Of a stretch of 64,000 nucleotides of DNA, positions 4,754 through 30,435 are shown piece by piece. Source of the stretch: Naegleria gruberi (Eukaryota); assembly GCA_000004985.1 (NCBI GenBank), contig GG738864.1; one strand, given 5' to 3'. The notes under the pieces are model-generated. The model did no database searches. It saw nothing but the letters and a program-made list of their open reading frames with translations, and was not told the DNA's origin. The translations under genes and the position numbers were made by a program. Numbering within the stretch: position 1 is the first letter of the stretch; each line of letters begins with the position of its first letter.

Positions 4754-5707
4754 TTATTGATTCTTTGAATGTTTCCAACATTGATAGCACAATTGACCAT
4801 TTTCCAAGAAATTCAAATGCTTTGGTCTCCATCCCAAAACTTCCATTGCCTTTCTTGGGTTTACAATAACTGAATTTTCACACATTTCAGCTAACAAATC
4901 ATTTTGTGGAATTGGCTCAACTTGGAGGGAATCTTCTTCTCTGTGTGGTGAGCTTGGTTTCCATCCAGTTAGTTTGGCTAATTCAATTCTGAGATGACCA
5001 AATTCTGGATGATCGTTCAATGCAGTCACATTGAAAACTTGACCTGAAATTAAGTTTCTGCCAACTGTCAAGACTTTGACGTATGCTTCACTGAGATCAT
5101 CAACGTGTACCCAACTCCATTTCTTGTGTGGAGAACCAATTACGATAAGCTTATTGTCAGAAGTGATTTTAGGTTTGAAATAATCTTCGAATATACCTCC
5201 ACCACTTTTGCCATATACGAAACCGGGACGAATCACAACATTATCCAAATGCTTGTATTGCTCATTAAGCAATTTGAATTCTACCTCTCTTCTCTTATCC
5301 AGAGCAGGATGATTAGGTCTTTGAGGAAAAGTTTCGTCTACAATCGTATCATTTGTTCCATACGTCAAGATTCCACTCGTAAAAAGAAACAATAATTTAG
5401 GATGTTGTTTCTTAAACCGTTCAGCAGCATGTTCTTGAATTAACTGAATCATTTTCTCAGTATCATTGCTCAATCCAACACAATCAAGAATTGCACTTGT
5501 TCTCCACAATAAATTCTCATACTTCTCATCAGTGAATAATTGAGTAACGTTGGGCAAGATGAGTGGAGTAATTTCATTCGACCACATGAGATGTTCATGT
5601 TTATCTGAACGAACGGCTCCATGAACTGTAAAACCATTTCTTTGAAGTGCCTGAGCAACTCCCAATCCAATGTAACCATTGGCGCCAAGGACAATAACGG
5701 TGGACAT
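4754..5707 (-). CDS. NAD(P)-binding Rossmann-fold protein of the NmrA/epimerase-dehydratase (atypical SDR) family
   Basis: MSTVIVLGANGYIGLGVAQAL glycine-rich dinucleotide-binding motif at the N-terminus. The track ORF extends upstream to 5797, but the first ATG giving a canonical start is near 5707. TAA stop. Confidence 0.55.
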   Translation of the reverse strand: MSTVIVLGANGYIGLGVAQALQRNGFTVHGAVRSDKHEHLMWSNEITPLILPNVTQLFTDEKYENLLWRTSAILDCVGLSNDTEKMIQLIQEHAAERFKKQHPKLLFLFTSGILTYGTNDTIVDETFPQRPNHPALDKRREVEFKLLNEQYKHLDNVVIRPGFVYGKSGGGIFEDYFKPKITSDNKLIVIGSPHKKWSWVHVDDLSEAYVKVLTVGRNLISGQVFNVTALNDHPEFGHLRIELAKLTGWKPSSPHREEDSLQVEPIPQNDLLAEMCENSVIVNPRKAMEVLGWRPKHLNFLENGQLCYQCWKHSKNQ

Positions 5708-5901
5708 TTTGTTTGGTTTTCGAAATTTGTTTTGAAAATTCAGAGATTCTTTAAATAGTTCATTTGTGTCCCAGGAATGTACAATTTCCATTCCCAAATT
5801 CTTTTAAACTCCATAAAAAGAACTTGCCAAAATCAAATTCTGAATTTTTACAATTTTTTTTCAAACACACAAAAATTTGTTCGAGCGATCACTAAACTTT
5901 T

Positions 5902-21745: not shown

Positions 21746-24493
21746 ATGAACATTCTCTTCTTGGTTGATACATCTTCATCGATGAATCAACTCACAACCA
21801 ATGGGATGAAATTGATTGATATTTCCAAGCATTGTATTGAACATTTCATCAAGAATAGACAAAAACATTTAATGCACCAACAAAAAAGGGATAATTATCT
21901 ATTGGTAACATCTGGACAAAAGGTAGTTGTTGGATGGAAAGATGCCACGGAATCATCATGTTTCCTTCAAAGATTGAAATCCCTAAAGGCTAATGATTTG
22001 ACTGAAATTGGGCCATCTTTGAAAAAGTCTTTTGATGTTTTAAATCAACATCGGCTTCAAAAAGGAGTGGACCATTATGGCATGGGAAGACATGCAAGTG
22101 CTGTAGAAAATTCTGCTATTGTTTTAATTACGGATGGTGAAAGATTAACTCAATCTGTTAATCCATTCGACCAAAGAGTATTTGTAAATCAATTTTTGGA
22201 TGCCAACAAATTGACACTCCCTAATCCACATTCATATTCTACAAAATTGACAGAGGAACCATTTAGATGGGATCAAAGAGTGTTCAGTATTATTTTACAA
22301 TTTCAAGCTGTTGGTACTTCTTTGACAACTGTTTCTCCATCAGCTTCACTTAATCCCTCATTGGCCAATCAACAACAACAACAAGCCAATTTGACAAATC
22401 AAACACCAACTATTACAGATAATCCAATAGCTCCAATAAGTGAAGTTACAGGTGGCTTATCGAGAACTTTCTCAAATATGGTTTCTCTCCTAAAATTTAT
22501 GGATGATTTATCTGGTGTTCAGCTTGCTAGACCTTCAGTGGTTGTAAATTTTGACATTGTAAAAACATTGAATAATAAGCAATCCAGTGTTTTCCCTCCA
22601 ACAAATAATGAGGGTCTAGGAAAAACTGTACTACAATATATTACTCAACCTCAGCAAAGAGAATCCTTTTGGCCAATACCAGAGAACTATCTTCCAGGTG
22701 CTAACATGACAGAACTGCCAACAAGAAGAGCTCAACCATCTATTTCTTTACTATATACTGAAAAGAATGATATTCTTTTGACAATGGCTCTTAACAAATT
22801 CCCAATTTATGATATTTTTGAAATCAGTACTCAAAGTCCAATTGGAAAATATGTTATTCAACAGTCAAGCAGAGAAGGATGCTATAAAGCCTTTGTAACA
22901 AACAGTACTCCGAGTAATTATGGATTTGGAGAAAGTTTTGGATTTTTAAAGAAGATTGCTGTCCAAAATAGTACTGGAGAAGTTGAAAATAAGATTTATT
23001 TCTACCTTCTGCCATATAACTTTTTGAGATTATTTTATTTGATGAATGAGTTTGTTGTAACCCACAAGTCTCAACCCTCAGCTGCTTGGATCCAACAGTT
23101 CCATAAATTTGTACAGAATCTCCCTGCCTACTATATCAAACCACTTAAATCAGCGATGAACAAATGGTTTGGAGCATTTGCCCATTTCCCTGATGTACCT
23201 TACGAACTACCAAGCTCATTACAACTCTATTACAAGCAACTAGTTGATGAGGAGAAACGATTTAACAAAGATATGGAATTAGAGGAAAGTGGATCATCTA
23301 CCAATGTAAATTTACCAAATGACTCACTTCCAAAAAATGACGACCAAATGCAAGATCCTCCATCCTTCCCAATAATCAGTTTCACAAATCCATATGTTGC
23401 CAAAAAGGAAACCAATAATTTAATTAGAAATCCATTCGATATCGACAAAACATCACTCCTGAAACAAATGAAAATGATGAGCCAGTACCTTTTCCATTCA
23501 GTTGTTGTAGAAGTTCCAGAAGATGCTGACCATTCTAAAATACCTTTGGATCAACATTTAAGAGATTTATCAAAAGAAGAAATTAAGAAACACTCCACTC
23601 CAATATCTCAAATGGGTAACTTTGATAAGGTATTATTGTCTAAGGAGGTTTTGAGAGACCCATTCGAGCCTCAAAAGCAGAAACAAGTCAACTTTGGAAG
23701 CCCATATCAGAAAAAGAAAAAGAGATTGAGATCAATTCATATGAACGCCCCATTACTTCTCGATAAATTAGTTGATGAATCTGAGATGGATCTGAAACAA
23801 AAGGAGGAGGAAGAATCATCAGAATTTGATGCAAAGGTGGAATCAATGCTCTTATTAGAACCAAACATTGCCGATTCAAATGTATCATCAATACCAGTTG
23901 AACCTAGTTCAGCTCCACTTGAAACACACGAACCTTTTGAAACAGAGTTAGAAAAGATTGAACCAGTTCCACCAATTATTGAAGATGCTGTTCCAATTAT
24001 TGTAGATGATGTAATACCTGACCAATATGCAGCCCTAACACAAAGTAGTACTAAGCCACAATCCCCTACCTCAAATCTTCCTGGTAAAGCGGCCAATTTT
24101 AGACCTCCATCAACCAATAGAAAATCTAAAGCTAATCCTCAAAAAGAACATGCTCAATTATTTGTTGATAGTTTCCAAAACAACCATGAATGTTTACAAT
24201 TTGTTTCTCAACTTCCTGACCCTTTACTTTCAGCTGTTGTGACGAGAGTAATGCAACAAGAATTAACAGATGGCAAAAAGAAACAACAACTAGATGCCAT
24301 TAGATCAAAGATAAGAAAAAGAAAACGTAAAGACATGGAAGAATTGGAAGAAGCAAAAGATATTACTTCTGATATTAATAAGGTTCATTTCCCAACTAGA
24401 GAAAGTAGGACAGTCTTTGTTAGAGAAATAATCGCTATAGCCGCTTTATTTAAAAAAACCAAACTAGCTCAATTATTGACAGAAGAGCTCTAA
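21746..24493 (+). CDS. INTS6: Integrator complex subunit 6 (INTS6/DDX26-like) homolog
   Basis: 915 aa single exon. N-terminus MNILFLVDTSSSMNQ (vWA start), ...LVTSGQKVVVGWKD..., and TEEPFRWDQRVF match human INTS6 MPILLFLIDTSASMNQ...TKEPFRWDQRLF. Long disordered C-terminal half. Confidence 0.7.
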   Translation: MNILFLVDTSSSMNQLTTNGMKLIDISKHCIEHFIKNRQKHLMHQQKRDNYLLVTSGQKVVVGWKDATESSCFLQRLKSLKANDLTEIGPSLKKSFDVLNQHRLQKGVDHYGMGRHASAVENSAIVLITDGERLTQSVNPFDQRVFVNQFLDANKLTLPNPHSYSTKLTEEPFRWDQRVFSIILQFQAVGTSLTTVSPSASLNPSLANQQQQQANLTNQTPTITDNPIAPISEVTGGLSRTFSNMVSLLKFMDDLSGVQLARPSVVVNFDIVKTLNNKQSSVFPPTNNEGLGKTVLQYITQPQQRESFWPIPENYLPGANMTELPTRRAQPSISLLYTEKNDILLTMALNKFPIYDIFEISTQSPIGKYVIQQSSREGCYKAFVTNSTPSNYGFGESFGFLKKIAVQNSTGEVENKIYFYLLPYNFLRLFYLMNEFVVTHKSQPSAAWIQQFHKFVQNLPAYYIKPLKSAMNKWFGAFAHFPDVPYELPSSLQLYYKQLVDEEKRFNKDMELEESGSSTNVNLPNDSLPKNDDQMQDPPSFPIISFTNPYVAKKETNNLIRNPFDIDKTSLLKQMKMMSQYLFHSVVVEVPEDADHSKIPLDQHLRDLSKEEIKKHSTPISQMGNFDKVLLSKEVLRDPFEPQKQKQVNFGSPYQKKKKRLRSIHMNAPLLLDKLVDESEMDLKQKEEEESSEFDAKVESMLLLEPNIADSNVSSIPVEPSSAPLETHEPFETELEKIEPVPPIIEDAVPIIVDDVIPDQYAALTQSSTKPQSPTSNLPGKAANFRPPSTNRKSKANPQKEHAQLFVDSFQNNHECLQFVSQLPDPLLSAVVTRVMQQELTDGKKKQQLDAIRSKIRKRKRKDMEELEEAKDITSDINKVHFPTRESRTVFVREIIAIAALFKKTKLAQLLTEEL

Positions 24494-24508: not shown

Positions 24509-27500
24509 TTATTCATTCAAAAATTCAAAACTTGACTCTTCTTGATTCTCAGTTTTTTCTTCCTCCTCATTTCCAGCAATGAAATCAAACGATGATTTTT
24601 CTTCGCTAACTGGTTCTGATTCAGTTGGTTCTATAGTTGATTCAATAATTGGGACTTGTTCAGTTGGTTCTTCATCTCCTGATGCGATAAAATCAAAGGA
24701 CGATTCCTCTTGTTTTGGTTCTTCTTCATTTTGAGACTCTTCAGAAATAAAATTGAAGGATGATGGTTCAGTTGTCTCTTCAGTTGGTTCTTCAACTTGC
24801 TTAGCTTCTTCAACAACTTCTTCAACTGGTTCTTCTTCAGTTTTAATAAAATCGAAAGAGGTTGATTCCTCAACTGCTTCATTATCGTTACTGTCATTGA
24901 AGGTTTGATATTCTTCAACATGTTGCTCTTCTTCTTGTGGAGCCTCACTAACAGTAGTAGTGGCAACGGCTTCTGTTGATTCTTCTACTTTTTCTTCCTT
25001 TTCAGTAACCTTTTCTTCTACCAACTCTTCTTCCACCTTTTCTTCCTTTGGTTCTTCAGGAGGAATTTGAGATTTCAATTCTTCAATTTTAGTTTTGACT
25101 TCTGCAATCTTAACCTTTGTTTCTTCCAATTGTTGGTCCAAAACTTCACATAAATCAAATTGCTCCTTTTCTAAAGCATCATTGATATTGTCATTAATCT
25201 TACTTTCTGATTTCTTCAATTCTTCAAGATTAGATTCTAATTTTACAAGCTTATCCTTTGGAGATAAATTTTCCTCAACAACTTTGACTTCATTAACTTG
25301 GACTTGTTGTTGTTGATTTGGAGATTGCTCTTCAACCTTTTCAATAACTGGAGTTTTAGGTTTTGGTACCTCTGGACTATTGATTGACTTTTTCATTTCG
25401 AGCAATTCCTCATCTGATAGTGAAATAATTGACTTAAGCTGTCTAACTTGATAATTGAAAAGAGCAATTAATTCATCAATAACATCAAATCTCAACTTGA
25501 GTTGTTCAGGTGCTTCAACTTCTAAAAGCTTTACGCGATTTTTTTCCAAGAAATCTATTCTCTTCAAACACAATCTAATGAATCGTTTAGAATCCACCTT
25601 ATCAACTTGTTCAAGTCTGTTGTGGGTAGCATCAAGTTCTTGGGTCAATCCTAGCTTTTGTTCCTCCAATTGTGTTTGTTCTTGCTTTAAGCTTGGGATA
25701 CTTGATTCAAGTTCCTGAATCAATTTGGTTAATTTATCGCTTTCTTCTTTACATTGAGCAGCTTCCTTAAATTTACGTGCTTTAGCATATTCAAGCTTGT
25801 CTGCCTGTACTTTTGGCAATCTATCATTTGCTCTTTGAAGTTGTTGAGTTGAGTTATCCAATTCCATTGAAACAGATGAGAGATGAGATTTGAGGGTAGA
25901 CAATTGTTGACTGAGAGCTCCTAATTCCTTAATTATTTGAGGTCTACTGTCATTAGGTGAACCTGGACATTCTTCCAGTTTATCCAATTTTTCAACCATG
26001 TCAATTATTTGTGAAACTCTTACTTGTTGGGTTTGTAGGTAGTCCTTGTATTGTCTCTTATCCATCATGGCATCATATTTCTTGGTTTCTTTGGTTTCAA
26101 TATTGGTCAAGTCCTTATTAAGAGTTGCAGAAAGTTTTTCAAACGAATCAACATCATCCAAATAATTTTGCTTTCTCTTTTGGAATTGTTCCTCATCATA
26201 AGATATCAACTTGAGTTGTTCATTAAAATCTTCCTCATACTTCTTGATTTTGTCTGTAACATCACTAAGTAAAGAAAGAACAGTCTTTTGTTCTGCTCTC
26301 TTTTCTTTCAACTTTCTTTCAAGTTCAGCAATTTCTCTAGAGATTTCTTCATTTTGATCTCTTAAATTATCTTCTTGAATTCTCAAATCCTTTGTAGAAT
26401 AATCAATTTGGTCAGTAATTCTTGTCTTTCTCTTTTGGAATTCATTCTCTTCCAATTTAATGCTTTCACCCATTCTCTTGATACGATTAGTTTCTGATTC
26501 TAATCTTTCACGACGTAATTCCTTCAATGGATTATTTTTCTTTAAAAAGTCATCATAATCCTTCTTTGTTGTTGTAAATGAGAAATCAACTCTTGAGTAA
26601 ACAAGATTGATTTCCTTCTTCATTTCAGTCAAAGTCTTAGAAATTGCAGAAATATAAGAATCGTTATTTTTCTCGGTCACTTGAATTTCTTCAATTTTTG
26701 TTCTCAACTCTGTTAATTCTTGTTCAATTTGTTCAGCCTTCTCGAATTCTTCCTGTTCAGTATATTCATCAAGTAATTGTTCGAGAGATTGAATTTTTTC
26801 TTGAAGAAGAGAGAATTGGTTCTCCTTCTTTTCATCAATCTTCTTTTGTTCTTCATCAAGCAATTTTGAAATTCTAGTTGAATATTTTGTAAGAGATGAA
26901 TTAATTGTAGACTTGATGTTTATCCAATCATTATCTACTGTTTCCTTTTCCTCCTCAATAGTTTCCGATTTGAAGGAATCTCTTCTTGTTGGTTTTTCCT
27001 CCTTGATTGATGTAACAACTGGACTTTCAATATGCTTTACAGGAGTAGAAGCTACAGGAGTTGAAGCAGAACCAACTTCAGAACTTGAACTACCTCTATC
27101 AAGTCTTCTTGGCTTGACTTGTAAAGAAGCAAAATCAATATCATCAGAAGGGCTTGAGGATTTTCTTGGTTCTGCAACTACTGGTGATGGTTTTAATTTT
27201 GGTTCCTCATCCTCAGTAGTCTTCAGAAATGATGAAATTGTAGAATCATCTTGTTCCTCATCCTCATTAGTATTACTATTGTTATTTGATTGAATGTGTG
27301 TTGTTAATTGAGAGCTGTGATTCAACTTAATATTATTTTCAATGTTTGAAAATGTTTTTTGAGCCATTGAATATTCTCTATCCAATTCATCACTTGTTTG
27401 ATCCAATTGTTTTAATTCTTCATCAACCTTGCTATTTTTTGCATTCTTTCTTCTTCCTTTTCCTACAGATCGATTGATTTTAATTTGACCAGGAATTGGT

Positions 27501-27908
27501 TGAATATTTTCAGGTTCATCTTGAGGTGTTGTTGCAGAGGTTGTTGTATCATCATCGTTAATAAAAGAAAAAGAAGATCCAGTATCGTGAGTTGAAACTG
27601 TTGGTGTGACTTCTCTGTGGCTACTGAGTCTAGAAGAACTTCCGGATGATGTACTGTTTTGAAAATAATGTTGTTTTTAAATATTACTACTTTGTTTTTA
27701 AAACCTACGAGTAAGTAGAAGTATTTCCGTAGTTGCTTGAATGTACTGTCATTCCTCCAAACAATTCATCTCCTTGATTTTGTTGATTTATAGAAGAAGG
27801 TGACGAAGAAGCAGCTGTTCCCAAAGGTGGTTCATACTCGGCAGTGCTCTTAGTTGGAGCATTATTCCGTTGTTTTGAATTATTACCTCTACCGAAGAAG
27901 CCAAACAT
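24509..27908 (-). CDS. Long coiled-coil protein (over 1100 aa) with iterated acidic SSFDF(I/L) motifs; two exons (27709-27908 and 24509-27653)
   Basis: The upstream reading frame stays open beyond the track's non-ATG start at 27406. Exon 1 MFGFFGRGNN...NTSTY then GTAGGT...ACAG (55-nt intron). The central ~600 aa is heptad-rich E/K/L/Q. The C-terminus has 5 or more copies of EE(S/T)SF(D/N/E)F(I/L) and the N-region has SSFSFI / DDIDFASL variants. TAA stop. Confidence 0.5.
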
Positions 27909-28123: not shown

Positions 28124-28638
28124 TTATTCAATCTTTGGGTTAACTGGTGGACGGAATTCAACACCCAAAACGTGGTGAGCGCATGATTCAAAAGCACTTC
28201 TTTGTGGATAACAATCTAATATAAATTATATTATTATGTTTAAACATTCCGATTCATTAATTAATTCCTTACCTTTGTAGTCATATTCACGCTTTCTCAG
28301 ACATTCAACGAGAGTAGAGAACTTTGGTTGACAAGGAGAGTTCATAAATTCAGAAGCAAGACTGAAGACACATTTACGACAGTTAATGCTTTCCTTCAAA
28401 CAATCTACAATATTATAATATTAATTCGACAATTAATGTTGTGTGATGAAAAATAAAATAATAATTTTGATGATCGTCAAATTAAAACACTATTGCGAAA
28501 TTTACCTTCTGGATTTTCGCTCTTTGATTTACATTTCATATATTCAGTATTTTCAGTTGAACACTTGGTCAAGAGAGCAGGAGCCAAGGCAGCAATGACA
28601 GCGGAAGAGTCAATAGAGTATTGTTCGGTGGTAGACAT
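28124..28638 (-). CDS. NDUFA8: NDUFA8-like twin-CHCH (four Cx9C-type pairs) mitochondrial protein, 3 exons
   Basis: Spliced protein ...IDSSAVIAALAPALLTKCSTENTEYMKCKSKSENPEGDCLKESINCRKCVFSLASEFMNSPCQPKFSTLVECLRKREYDYKDCYPQRSAFESCAHHVLG... aligns with human NDUFA8 ([26 protein letters not shown]...RCLEEGKLVNKCALDFF...). Donors GTAAAT and GTAAGG. Confidence 0.55.
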
Positions 28639-29082: not shown

Positions 29083-30435
29083 ATGGCAGACGATCTATTA
29101 ATGAGTTTTATGTCTATCACAGACGAAAACAACGTTGAAACTGCTCAACATTACTTGGAAGCAGCTGGATTTGATTTGGAGACTGCTGTAGAATTATTCT
29201 TCTCTAATCAACCTGCAAGTAAATCCAATTCAAGTGCTACTACTACTACAAGTAACAAGCCTACAATACCCTCCGATTATGAAGATATTAGATCACCTAT
29301 TCCGCAACAAGCCTCCAGACTGTATGACTCATTTCAAGGAAATGATTATTCCTATGATAATTCTCAATCCTATTCTGTACCATCTTTTGTAACTTCAAAT
29401 CAATACAACAATAGAGCAAACCAACAATTCCAATCATCAAGATTAACAAAACACGGTGATGAATTTTCGGAAATGTTTAAAAAGCCAGATATTGTATTTA
29501 AGGGAAGTTTTGATGCTGCCAAACAAGAGGCTGAAACATCAGGAAGATGGCTTATTGTAGAAATTCAAAAGGATGATATTTTTGACTGTCACAGAATGAA
29601 TAGAGATACTTGGAATCACGAAGTTGTGAAAACAATTGTGGATACATTCTTTGTTCTTTGGCAAGCTGATGATGGAACTAATCAGGCTGAATTATTTAAA
29701 ACAAGATATCGTATTCGTTCCTATCCTTTCGTTTGTATTATTGACCCAAGAACTGGAGAAAATATGAAGACTTGGGAAGGTAAATATATCGATGCCAGCA
29801 CAATGGTAGATTCTCTTCAAAACTTTGCCGATAGTCACTCACTTATGGATCACCTTCCTTCACCATCTCCAAATACTTTACATACTCCAAATCCATTCGA
29901 TAATATTCCAGTTCAACACCTTCCTTCAACAACGGCAACAACAACAACTAGTCACCATACTGATATGTCAACAGGTGATGAAACAGAGGAAGAAATGATT
30001 AGAGCTGCTATTGAGGCTTCACTCCAAGAATCTAATGCCATGCAGGACGATGACGTGCAAATTTTAGATAGTTTCCCAATTGCTCAACCAACAACAGCCA
30101 CTAATACTATATCGACACCAGTTGTTCAAGAACCACCAAAACCTCAAGAAACACCTGACAAGCAAGTTAATGTTTCCGATTTTGTCGTTGAACAAGGAGA
30201 TACAACCAGAATTCAAGTTAAATTACCAGACGGAAAGAAGGAAGTTATTAAGATTTTGAAGAGTGCTCCATTGGCAGCTGTTTATGCTGTCTGTAGACAA
30301 AAATTAGGAGACAGTGTACCATCATTTACCATTACTTATTTTGACAAGACTCAAAAGACTTTGGAAAATACCTTAGAAAAAACTTTAGGAGGAGAAGGAA
30401 TTTTAGGAGCTGCTTTATCAGTTGTTCCTGAATAA
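29083..30435 (+). CDS. UBA-UAS-UIM-UBX adaptor (UBXD7/Ubx5-like p97 cofactor)
   Basis: 450 aa. N-terminal UBA-like region (FMSITDENNVETAQHYLEAAGFDLETAVELFF). Thioredoxin-like UAS (GRWLIVEIQKDDIFDCHRMNRDTW). UIM (EEEMIRAAIEASLQES). C-terminal UBX (TRIQVKLPDGKKEVIKILKSAPLAAVYAV...). Confidence 0.7.
   Translation: MADDLLMSFMSITDENNVETAQHYLEAAGFDLETAVELFFSNQPASKSNSSATTTTSNKPTIPSDYEDIRSPIPQQASRLYDSFQGNDYSYDNSQSYSVPSFVTSNQYNNRANQQFQSSRLTKHGDEFSEMFKKPDIVFKGSFDAAKQEAETSGRWLIVEIQKDDIFDCHRMNRDTWNHEVVKTIVDTFFVLWQADDGTNQAELFKTRYRIRSYPFVCIIDPRTGENMKTWEGKYIDASTMVDSLQNFADSHSLMDHLPSPSPNTLHTPNPFDNIPVQHLPSTTATTTTSHHTDMSTGDETEEEMIRAAIEASLQESNAMQDDDVQILDSFPIAQPTTATNTISTPVVQEPPKPQETPDKQVNVSDFVVEQGDTTRIQVKLPDGKKEVIKILKSAPLAAVYAVCRQKLGDSVPSFTITYFDKTQKTLENTLEKTLGGEGILGAALSVVPE

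Follow-up and report, generated by a model that had tools for sequence, protein, structure and literature searches.

A DISC1 homolog of Naegleria gruberi with an expanded array of short linear motifs resembling the AP-4 ear-binding motifs of tepsin

Research on DISC1, a psychiatric-risk scaffold, spans over two decades, and we know of no agreement on its core molecular function; to our knowledge, no function has been assigned either to its SSFSFI region, known as the "SF-rich motif". The AP-4 coat is ancient and works independently of clathrin; its loss leads to a childhood neurological disorder. The motifs by which tepsin engages AP-4 are reportedly those described by Mattera et al. in 2015 (together with Frazier et al. 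in 2016), a β4-ear peptide [GS]LFxG[ML]x[LV] and an ε-ear peptide S[AV]F[SA]FLN. Here we describe a gene of Naegleria gruberi, located on the minus strand (27908..24509) of a window that comprises 64,000 nucleotides (nt) of contig GG738864.1 (assembly GCA_000004985.1), whose 1114-amino-acid (aa) product is a homolog of DISC1 and carries linear motifs of two classes that resemble those of tepsin.

The dispersed arrangement of UVR repeats in DISC1 has been described (PMC8527833; PMC13273187), and the core of the mouse protein is a compact homotetramer held together by UVR-UVR contacts, with NDE1/NDEL1 bound at its C-terminal hairpin (PMC13273187). Homologs are already known from "Opisthokonta, Plantae, and Excavates" (PMC13273187) and from plants (PMC4046923). 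The tail of tepsin contains two conserved motifs, for the ε and β4 appendages of AP-4 (PMC11064669), of which the β4-ear motif reads LFxG[M/L]x[L/V] (PMC13335578). No scaffold has been identified for AP-4 according to the literature on this coat.

On profile evidence, the Naegleria gene belongs to the DISC1 family as a heterolobosean representative, and its product has three UVR-like hairpins dispersed along the chain. When the 1114 aa were scanned with a Pfam set that did not include the DISC1 model PF28234, nothing meaningful emerged (best match PUMA_CC, E=0.12), and a direct sequence search returned only 4 close homologs; in UniRef, the orthologs are labeled "UVR domain-containing protein". 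A profile of the helical core built from 5 sequences did not reach DISC1 in the PDB and matched UvrB (1e52) at the first hairpin, UVR1, with E=0.011. When a helical-core profile was searched against 1.84 billion representative proteins, 68 proteins matched, most of them collinear over ~600 positions. The top match of the 51-member family profile among all PDB sequences is the core of mouse DISC1 (9rux_A, "Disrupted in schizophrenia 1 homolog"; E=1.7e-7), covering two collinear stretches, UVR1 and the UVR2 block "LPxLExxK…F..A..L..EI", with the UVR domains of UvrB (1e52, 1c4o) and ClpC (6em9) as weaker, lower-ranked matches. Comparison of the family profile with 14 mammalian DISC1 sequences by HHalign gave a probability of 97.5% and E=6.3e-12 over 273 columns, extending from UVR2 to the C-terminal hairpin (UVR3). 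These two matches identify the gene as a heterolobosean DISC1 homolog. A Foldseek search of the AlphaFold2 model against the PDB (to 8 April 2026, probably before 9rux) returned generic long-helix proteins only, with E never below 0.08.

The model in question is that of a single chain, computed from an input alignment of 51 sequences (exon-2 numbering +67). It contains high-confidence helices over aa 307-929 (25067..26935, minus strand, as are all coordinates of this gene), the region homologous to the DISC1 core, within which helix-turn-helix regions are found at aa ~346-395, ~636-777 and ~865-929. Three dispersed UVR turns, EEFEKAEQIEQEL, RKFKEAAQCKEE and KEQFDLCEVLDQQLEE, fall into these regions, with near-invariant [FY] and A residues. 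The turn of hairpin 1, EQEEFEKAEQIEQEL (26714..26758, aa 366-380), aligns with DGDYDTAETLRQRLEEL of DISC1 and is modeled as a helix-turn-helix; hairpin 2, LPKVQADKLEYAKARKFKEAAQCKEE (25742..25819, aa 679-704), aligns with LPALLEAKMLALSGSCFSTAKELTEEI of DISC1 and is the most conserved block of the family, with near-invariant P, K, F, K and A; and hairpin 3, EKEQFDLCEVLDQQLEE (25121..25171, aa 895-911), aligns with the C-terminal hairpin of DISC1 at the place where UvrB (1c4o/1e52) is also matched. With UvrB/UvrC and ClpC-type UVR domains, the protein thus shares the hairpin fold and the "[ED]x[FY][ED]xAxxL" turn, as seen in weak but specific profile matches; unlike in those proteins, the hairpins lie inside the long helices of a eukaryotic scaffold that has neither nuclease nor ATPase domains.

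The resemblance to DISC1 extends beyond the collinear helical core and its three UVR-like hairpins to the long, disordered and Ser-rich N-terminus, where an SSFSFI motif and a basic patch are found. In the Naegleria model, confidence (predicted local distance difference test, pLDDT) is below 50 over aa 68-296, with SSFSFI at aa 93-98; in mammalian DISC1, an SSFSFI-type motif ("F[TA]SSFSFI[RQ]LS") is present in the heads of all 120 sequences retrieved, most of which also contain the basic element RRRRLARRPGYMR, and residues 190-230 of the human protein include SAFTSSFSFIRLSLG. The proteins also differ. Very little sequence identity to mammalian DISC1 is left, so that the homology is seen by profiles only. 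The N. gruberi protein has six S-x-F-x-F copies instead of one, five of which lie in an acidic C-terminal tail of 180 aa, and it has kept LFxG[ML]x[LV] in intact form, a motif absent from mammalian DISC1. Since SSFSFI is invariant in mammalian DISC1, the array of N. gruberi is a multi-copy form of the SF-rich motif; the protein is, in other words, a new member of a known family, and its array expands a DISC1 motif that was already known and is conserved.

One of the six S-F-x-F-[I/L] motifs, SSFSFIND (27554..27577, aa 93-100), is located near the N-terminus and has a core identical to the SSFSFI of mammalian DISC1. The other five, TSFDFIKT (24839..24862, aa 998-1005), SSFNFISE (24740..24763, aa 1031-1038), SSFDFIAS (24680..24703, aa 1051-1058), SSFDFIAG (24572..24595, aa 1087-1094) and SSFEFLNE (24512..24535, aa 1107-1114), occupy the disordered acidic tail (24512..25054, aa 934-1114); the last of them ends in the C-terminal carboxylate of the protein and is the copy nearest to the terminal S[AV]F[SA]FLN of tepsin. 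EESSFDFIASGDEE and NQEESSFEFLNE are peptides of this ε-type class, and GDELFGGMTVHSS is a peptide of the β4-type class considered below. Iterated SFDF-type motifs with at least five C-terminal copies had been proposed in an earlier note on this DNA, and the proposal holds: F.F[ILMV] occurs 6 times in the whole protein, against a maximum of 4 in 20,000 composition-preserving shuffles, and 5 times in the 184-aa tail, where shuffles reach 2 at most and 10 of the 11 Phe residues lie within motifs. The same note gave the flanks as "EE(S/T)SFDFI", of which the motif stands and the uniformity does not, the tail copies being preceded by EST-, PSS-, ESS-, KSS- and ESS-. Its acidic embedding is likewise real for the tail, which has 66 D/E and 10 K/R residues in 181 aa, and fails as a conserved family feature, acidic flanks being a compositional trait of Naegleria/Heterolobosea that is absent from most other homologs. 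An origin of the array from tandem repeats was rejected, as Tandem Repeats Finder detected no DNA repeat able to produce the motif copies. Enriched, repeat-free and located throughout in segments with pLDDT <50, the six copies are best described as short linear motifs in disordered arms, which bears out the more general idea of multivalent motifs on a helical, coiled-coil-type scaffold. A separate conserved island, "DDSTISSFL" (27224-27250, aa 202-210; DDSTIS[ST]FL or DDSTIGAFL in Naegleria-type orthologs), stands out from the otherwise divergent disordered N-terminal region that surrounds it.

A second motif class, overlooked in the earlier note, is represented by ELFGGMTVH (27741..27767, aa 48-56), in which LFGGMTV (aa 49-55) is an exact match to LFxG[M/L]x[L/V]. 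At least one match to LF.G[ML].[LV] is found in shuffles of the protein with P = 0.0006, and the counterpart in N. fowleri and N. lovaniensis is SLFGGMSVH. The site is encoded by exon 1, adjoining the low-confidence region of the model, and is counted as disordered. The segment "DDIDFASL" (from aa 237), which had been read as a further variant of the S-F-x-F motif, instead belongs to DDIDFASLQVKPRR (27104..27145, aa 237-250), a degenerate F-x-G-[LM]-x-[VIM]-K copy. It aligns with QLDFGGLTMKSR of Percolomonas, DINFSGMTVKTR and DISFSGMKVKAR of Acrasis-like sequences, and DLDFSGLEFKGK and TLSFSGMDFKKR; because of this alignment with heterolobosean copies, it is regarded as a decayed second copy of the class, the degenerate β4-type copy itself spanning aa 241-247.

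The basic patch KGRRKNAKNSK (27428..27460, aa 132-142) is a weak, putative counterpart of the family element "KKKKR..(V/P)G(Y/F)AR" and of RRRRLARRPGYMR in DISC1, to both of which the match is loose. At the very N-terminus, the family shows a conserved sequence that is first hydrophobic and then basic ("MFGFFGRG" in N. gruberi, 27885-27908; elsewhere "MFGLFSGKK", "MVGLFGKKK" and "MFGFMSKSK"), and in other members the LFxG[LM] motif begins at residue 2-4 ("MDLFGGLSVK", "MFGGLEVKG"). This conserved N-terminus could be a further degenerate β4-type copy, or an N-terminal membrane or acetylation signal.

Both motif classes are conserved far beyond Naegleria. The S-F-x-F motif is kept in position and kind in all 4 close homologs, and the motifs are conserved from Naegleria and Willaertia to some 60 eukaryotic homologs at greater distance. 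Named sources of the latter include Acrasis kona and Percolomonas (Heterolobosea), Trypanosoma grayi and Papus (Kinetoplastea), Achlya hypogyna (an oomycete), Pinguiococcus (an ochrophyte), Vitrella brassicaformis (an alveolate) and Rhodelphis marinus; DISC1 homologs of Discoba, alveolates, a Rhodelphis and an oomycete have one or both of the tepsin-type motifs, often in many copies, and both classes occur together in Heterolobosea, T. grayi, Vitrella and Rhodelphis. In 71 family sequences, many of the motif-less ones being fragments without their ends, S.F.F[ILMV] was observed 105 times (shuffle mean 0.59, maximum 5), LF.G[ML].[LV] 16 times (mean 0.07, maximum 2) and the exact pattern S[AV]F[SA]FLN 4 times, in three distant homologs (0 in shuffles). 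All but two of the 105 S.F.F[ILMV] occurrences are located either in the N-terminal third (61) or in the C-terminal fifth (42) of their sequences; copy number among orthologs ranges from 1 to 9, and the last copy is at the extreme C-terminus in the N. gruberi protein and three homologs. From 122 instances of F.F[ILMV], a consensus S-[A/S/G]-F-[S/D/G/A]-F-[I/L/M/V]-N was derived, in which Ser is found at -2 in 105 of the 122, Phe at +2 in all 122 and Met as the final hydrophobic residue in 20; position -1 holds A/S/G, with acidic residues absent throughout, and N is the most frequent residue at the end.

This consensus, S-[ASG]-F-x-F-[ILMV]-N, resembles the ε-type pattern of tepsin relaxed at two positions. 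Among 120 tepsins, gathered starting from a fragment printed in PMC3317806, LF.G[ML].[LVI] is present in 105, mostly as SLFAGMELV, and an S.F.FL(N) ending (SAFAFLN, SAFSFLN, SVFSFLN and others) in 100. The N. gruberi protein and tepsin are therefore alike in having an exact LFxG[M/L]x[L/V] and S-x-F-x-F-L/I-N within disorder, with the last copy at the C-terminus. They are unlike in that Pfam finds both an ENTH and a tepsin VHS/ENTH-like domain in tepsin and neither in the N. gruberi protein, in that the motifs of the latter are multi-copy (6 + 2) and divided between both ends, and in that the second residue of the ε-type motif, Ala/Val in tepsin, is Ser/Gly/Ala in the DISC1 family. Judged from the sequences and their domain content, the resemblance is one of motifs only. 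What is apparently new is the correspondence between both conserved motif classes of the DISC1 family and the two by which tepsin engages the ears of AP-4; a full-text literature search found no paper connecting DISC1 with AP-4 or tepsin. With a docking motif for vesicle-trafficking machinery as its best match, the array bears out in part the reading given in the earlier note.

Taken together, these observations suggest that the protein may act as an oligomeric hub of the DISC1 type and bind the ears of AP-4 in a multivalent manner, a reading that we regard as evenly balanced between true and false for the proteins of N. gruberi and other protists, and as somewhat less likely for human DISC1. 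The disordered arms would offer many low-affinity sites to which AP-4 could attach by its ear (appendage) domains. Each chain would contribute one or two β4-type and six ε-type sites, a number that would increase fourfold if the core tetramerizes like that of mouse DISC1 (PMC13273187). Avidity would then recruit the hub to AP-4 on post-Golgi membranes, where it could cluster or cross-link the coat, much as bivalent tepsin has already been suggested to cross-link AP-4 (PMC9635299). Other clients would meanwhile still have access to the helical core and to the UVR hairpin at the C-terminus, the mammalian counterpart of this region binding the dynein regulator NDE1. By extension, the DISC1 family may ancestrally have been an AP-4 accessory hub, with SSFSFI as ε-ear docking motif and LFxG[ML]x[VL] as the matching β4-ear docking motif, and a Naegleria-type oligomer with two dozen or more sites would cluster AP-4 on post-Golgi carriers; we put this ancestral role forward tentatively, leaning slightly against it. 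Phyletic distribution offers a hint in this direction: yeast, worms and flies have lost AP-4 and tepsin together (PMC3317806), and flies are also without DISC1 (PMC11352338), a pattern of shared absence that is common to many genes.

Several observations weigh against an AP-4 hub. The strict ε-ear pattern is matched exactly by none of the six N. gruberi copies, position 2 being Ser rather than Ala/Val and four copies having Ile followed by a residue other than Asn. In a position-specific scoring matrix (PSSM) derived from vertebrate tepsins, which is judged too narrow for a fair test, SSFEFLN and SSFSFIN score 18.7 and 13.3 against a 99th percentile of 13.3 in shuffles, but the remaining four ε-type copies score only 2.8, and the β4-type site, although ranked first, reaches 2.4 and so stays below the mean shuffle maximum of 3.3. 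None of 120 mammalian DISC1 sequences contains LFxG[ML]x[LV]. Moreover, the AP-4 proteomics papers searched do not mention DISC1 in their main text, and the portions searched of the Davies 2018 supplementary tables do not list it. AP-4 itself is presumably present in Naegleria. Finally, individual homologs depart from the scheme: that of Percolomonas has no S-x-F-x-F and instead ~seven copies of "[IV]D[IL]SKF[GA]" in its acidic tail (C-terminal 250 aa), which looks like a lineage-specific swap of one linear motif for another; that of Achlya hypogyna has ten SLFGG[LM]x[VIL] copies at both ends and zero S-x-F-x-F, from which it follows that the LFxG class can be amplified on its own; and those of kinetoplastids have Gly-rich FxFG-like repeats ("GGFGFG", "SGFAFG", "SAFGFV"). 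The kinetoplastid homologs, including that of T. grayi, also possess an additional domain at the N-terminus ("RRRLERFYEEYNPSKL…ALFxALxKKYGPEP"), which Naegleria lacks.

The mismatches to the strict ε pattern, the swaps in Percolomonas and kinetoplastids, which reveal an evolvable motif interface, and the silence of the searched AP-4 proteomics text on DISC1 can also be accommodated by a DISC1 homolog whose two motif classes both serve for docking to some conserved protein that is not AP-4, since conservation and multivalency imply some partner, be it AP-4 or another. The appendage in question could be provided by a different coat (AP-1/3/5, COPI, TSET), or the partner could be among those of the SF-rich region of mammalian DISC1, to which GSK3β and PDE4B have reportedly been mapped by others. 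A partner of this kind would require a double coincidence, because two unrelated classes both match the AP-4 motifs of tepsin, including exact matches at 16 against 0.07 and 4 against 0 expected from shuffles. An appendage of the γ-ear type is further disfavored by the placement of Gly, which in LFxG is at +3 from Leu and not right after Phe, making the motif distinct from the γ-ear/GAE (γ-adaptin ear) motif psi-G-[PDE]-[psi/L/M]. We consider a partner other than AP-4 unlikely, if the most serious competitor to the AP-4 hub.

A second alternative, put forward in the earlier note, is that the FDFI cores are LC3-interacting regions (LIR) or Atg8-interacting motifs (AIM), in which case the protein would be a multivalent autophagy receptor or adaptor. 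All six N. gruberi copies do conform to [FWY]xx[LIV] and have Ser and acidic residues close by, and the multivalent array itself is reminiscent of LIR/AIM autophagy receptors. The core pattern is, though, trivially fitted, and the invariants that emerge from the 122 family instances (Ser at -2, A/S/G at -1, Phe at +2, Met allowed last) are not LIR rules; acidic flanks are missing from most homologs outside Heterolobosea, and the second motif class, LFxG, is left unexplained. Nor does Pfam find a cargo- or ubiquitin-binding domain, as would be expected of a selective-autophagy receptor, in what is a DISC1 homolog. Binding to Atg8 and AP-4-type motifs are not mutually exclusive, since tepsin binds LC3B and one of its predicted LC3B sites overlaps its β4-ear motif (PMC13335578). 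As an explanation of the array, an LIR function nevertheless appears improbable.

The remaining proposals of that note did not withstand comparison. FFAT-like motifs (EFFDAxE; E-[FY]-[FY]-D-A-x-E) number zero among the copies, none of which has adjacent aromatics followed by D-A and all of which read F-x-F-[IL]; the clathrin box (L-phi-x-phi-[DE]) is matched by none of the six copies, whose first position is Phe and never Leu, and whose fifth is K/S/A/N and never D/E. A golgin or other coiled-coil tether is contradicted by the lack in Pfam of a membrane-targeting domain of the kind found at the C-terminus of tethers (GRIP, GRAB or TM), by the homology to DISC1 and by an AlphaFold2 model made of helical hairpins and a disordered acidic C-terminus. 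The image of a rod has to be given up as well, the helical core being DISC1-like and the core of mammalian DISC1 a compact tetramer (PMC13273187). Other motif classes that were considered and rejected are AP-2 FxDxF/DPF and the γ-ear psi-G-[PDE]-[psi/L/M], the B56 motif LxxIxE, which fits only 2 of the 6 copies, and FxFG, as the copies have no Gly.

The weakest alternative, that the motifs are partnerless hydrophobic "stickers" tuning self-association, condensation or aggregation of the hub, or FxFG-like nuclear-transport elements, draws on the variable copy number, on the Gly-rich repeats of kinetoplastid homologs and on the oligomerization and aggregation for which DISC1 is known (PMC12158487). 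It is very improbable, since generic stickers would not be expected to preserve seven consensus residues, among them an invariant Ser and two invariant Phe, all the way from Discoba to mammals, nor a terminal, tepsin-like motif position, and since the N. gruberi copies end in I/L, not Gly.

Were the AP-4 hub to prove correct, a DISC1-type protein could be a candidate for the scaffold missing from the clathrin-less AP-4 coat, and could couple AP-4 carriers to clients of the helical core, such as NDE1/dynein in animals; the DISC1 and AP-4 fields would be joined, and DISC1 given an ancestral cell-biological role. Should the link to AP-4 be false, a useful but ordinary result would be left, in the form of a delimited protist DISC1 homolog with an expanded known motif.

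As for the gene itself, the interval 24509-27908 of the earlier note is exact from ATG to stop, the start codon being at 27908 and the TAA stop at 24511..24509, and encloses one gene of two exons whose spliced product is the 1114-aa protein. Exon 1 (27709..27908, 200 nt) encodes aa 1-66 and two bases of codon 67, beginning with "MFGFFGRG" as in the orthologs; it is followed by a 55-nt GT..AG intron in phase 2 (27654..27708; donor TC|GTAGGT, acceptor ACAG|T) and by exon 2 (24509..27653), which encodes aa 67-1114 and the stop. By alignment with the orthologs, the splice junction restores the stretch "...GNTSTYSTTSS..." (NTSTYSTSS), and "MFGFF…EYEPP…LFGGM.VH…NTSTYSTSS" runs unbroken across the junction in the proteins of N. 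fowleri, N. lovaniensis and Willaertia magna; this continuity of the ortholog N-termini confirms the two-exon model.

The whole window is AT-rich (~33% GC), and its proteins share 34-50% identity at best with entries of a large protein collection, the top matches coming from N. fowleri and N. lovaniensis. A gene for a UBA-thioredoxin-like-UBX protein, a small 118-aa gene and the DISC1-like gene follow one another in an order that is identical on N. fowleri contig VFQX01000015.1, and this shared local gene order supports orthology with the N. fowleri gene. On the downstream side, an INTS6-like gene with VWA and INTS6 beta-barrel domains (21746-24493, plus strand) ends 15 nt from the stop of the DISC1-like gene (24509, minus strand), so that the 3' untranslated regions of the two convergent genes must overlap or be near-absent; in N. 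fowleri, the downstream neighbor is a different one, a DCD-domain gene. Upstream, the small gene at ~28124-28638 (minus strand) has three exons and encodes a Cys-rich protein of 118 aa with CX9C-like pairs and no Pfam match, the equivalent slot between the UBX gene and the DISC1-like gene of N. fowleri being occupied by a 117-aa gene (5159-5725). Beyond it, at 29083-30435 (plus strand), lies a single-exon gene for a UBA / thioredoxin-like / UIM / UBX protein with the architecture of a UBXD7/FAF-type p97 adaptor, which is syntenic with N. fowleri.

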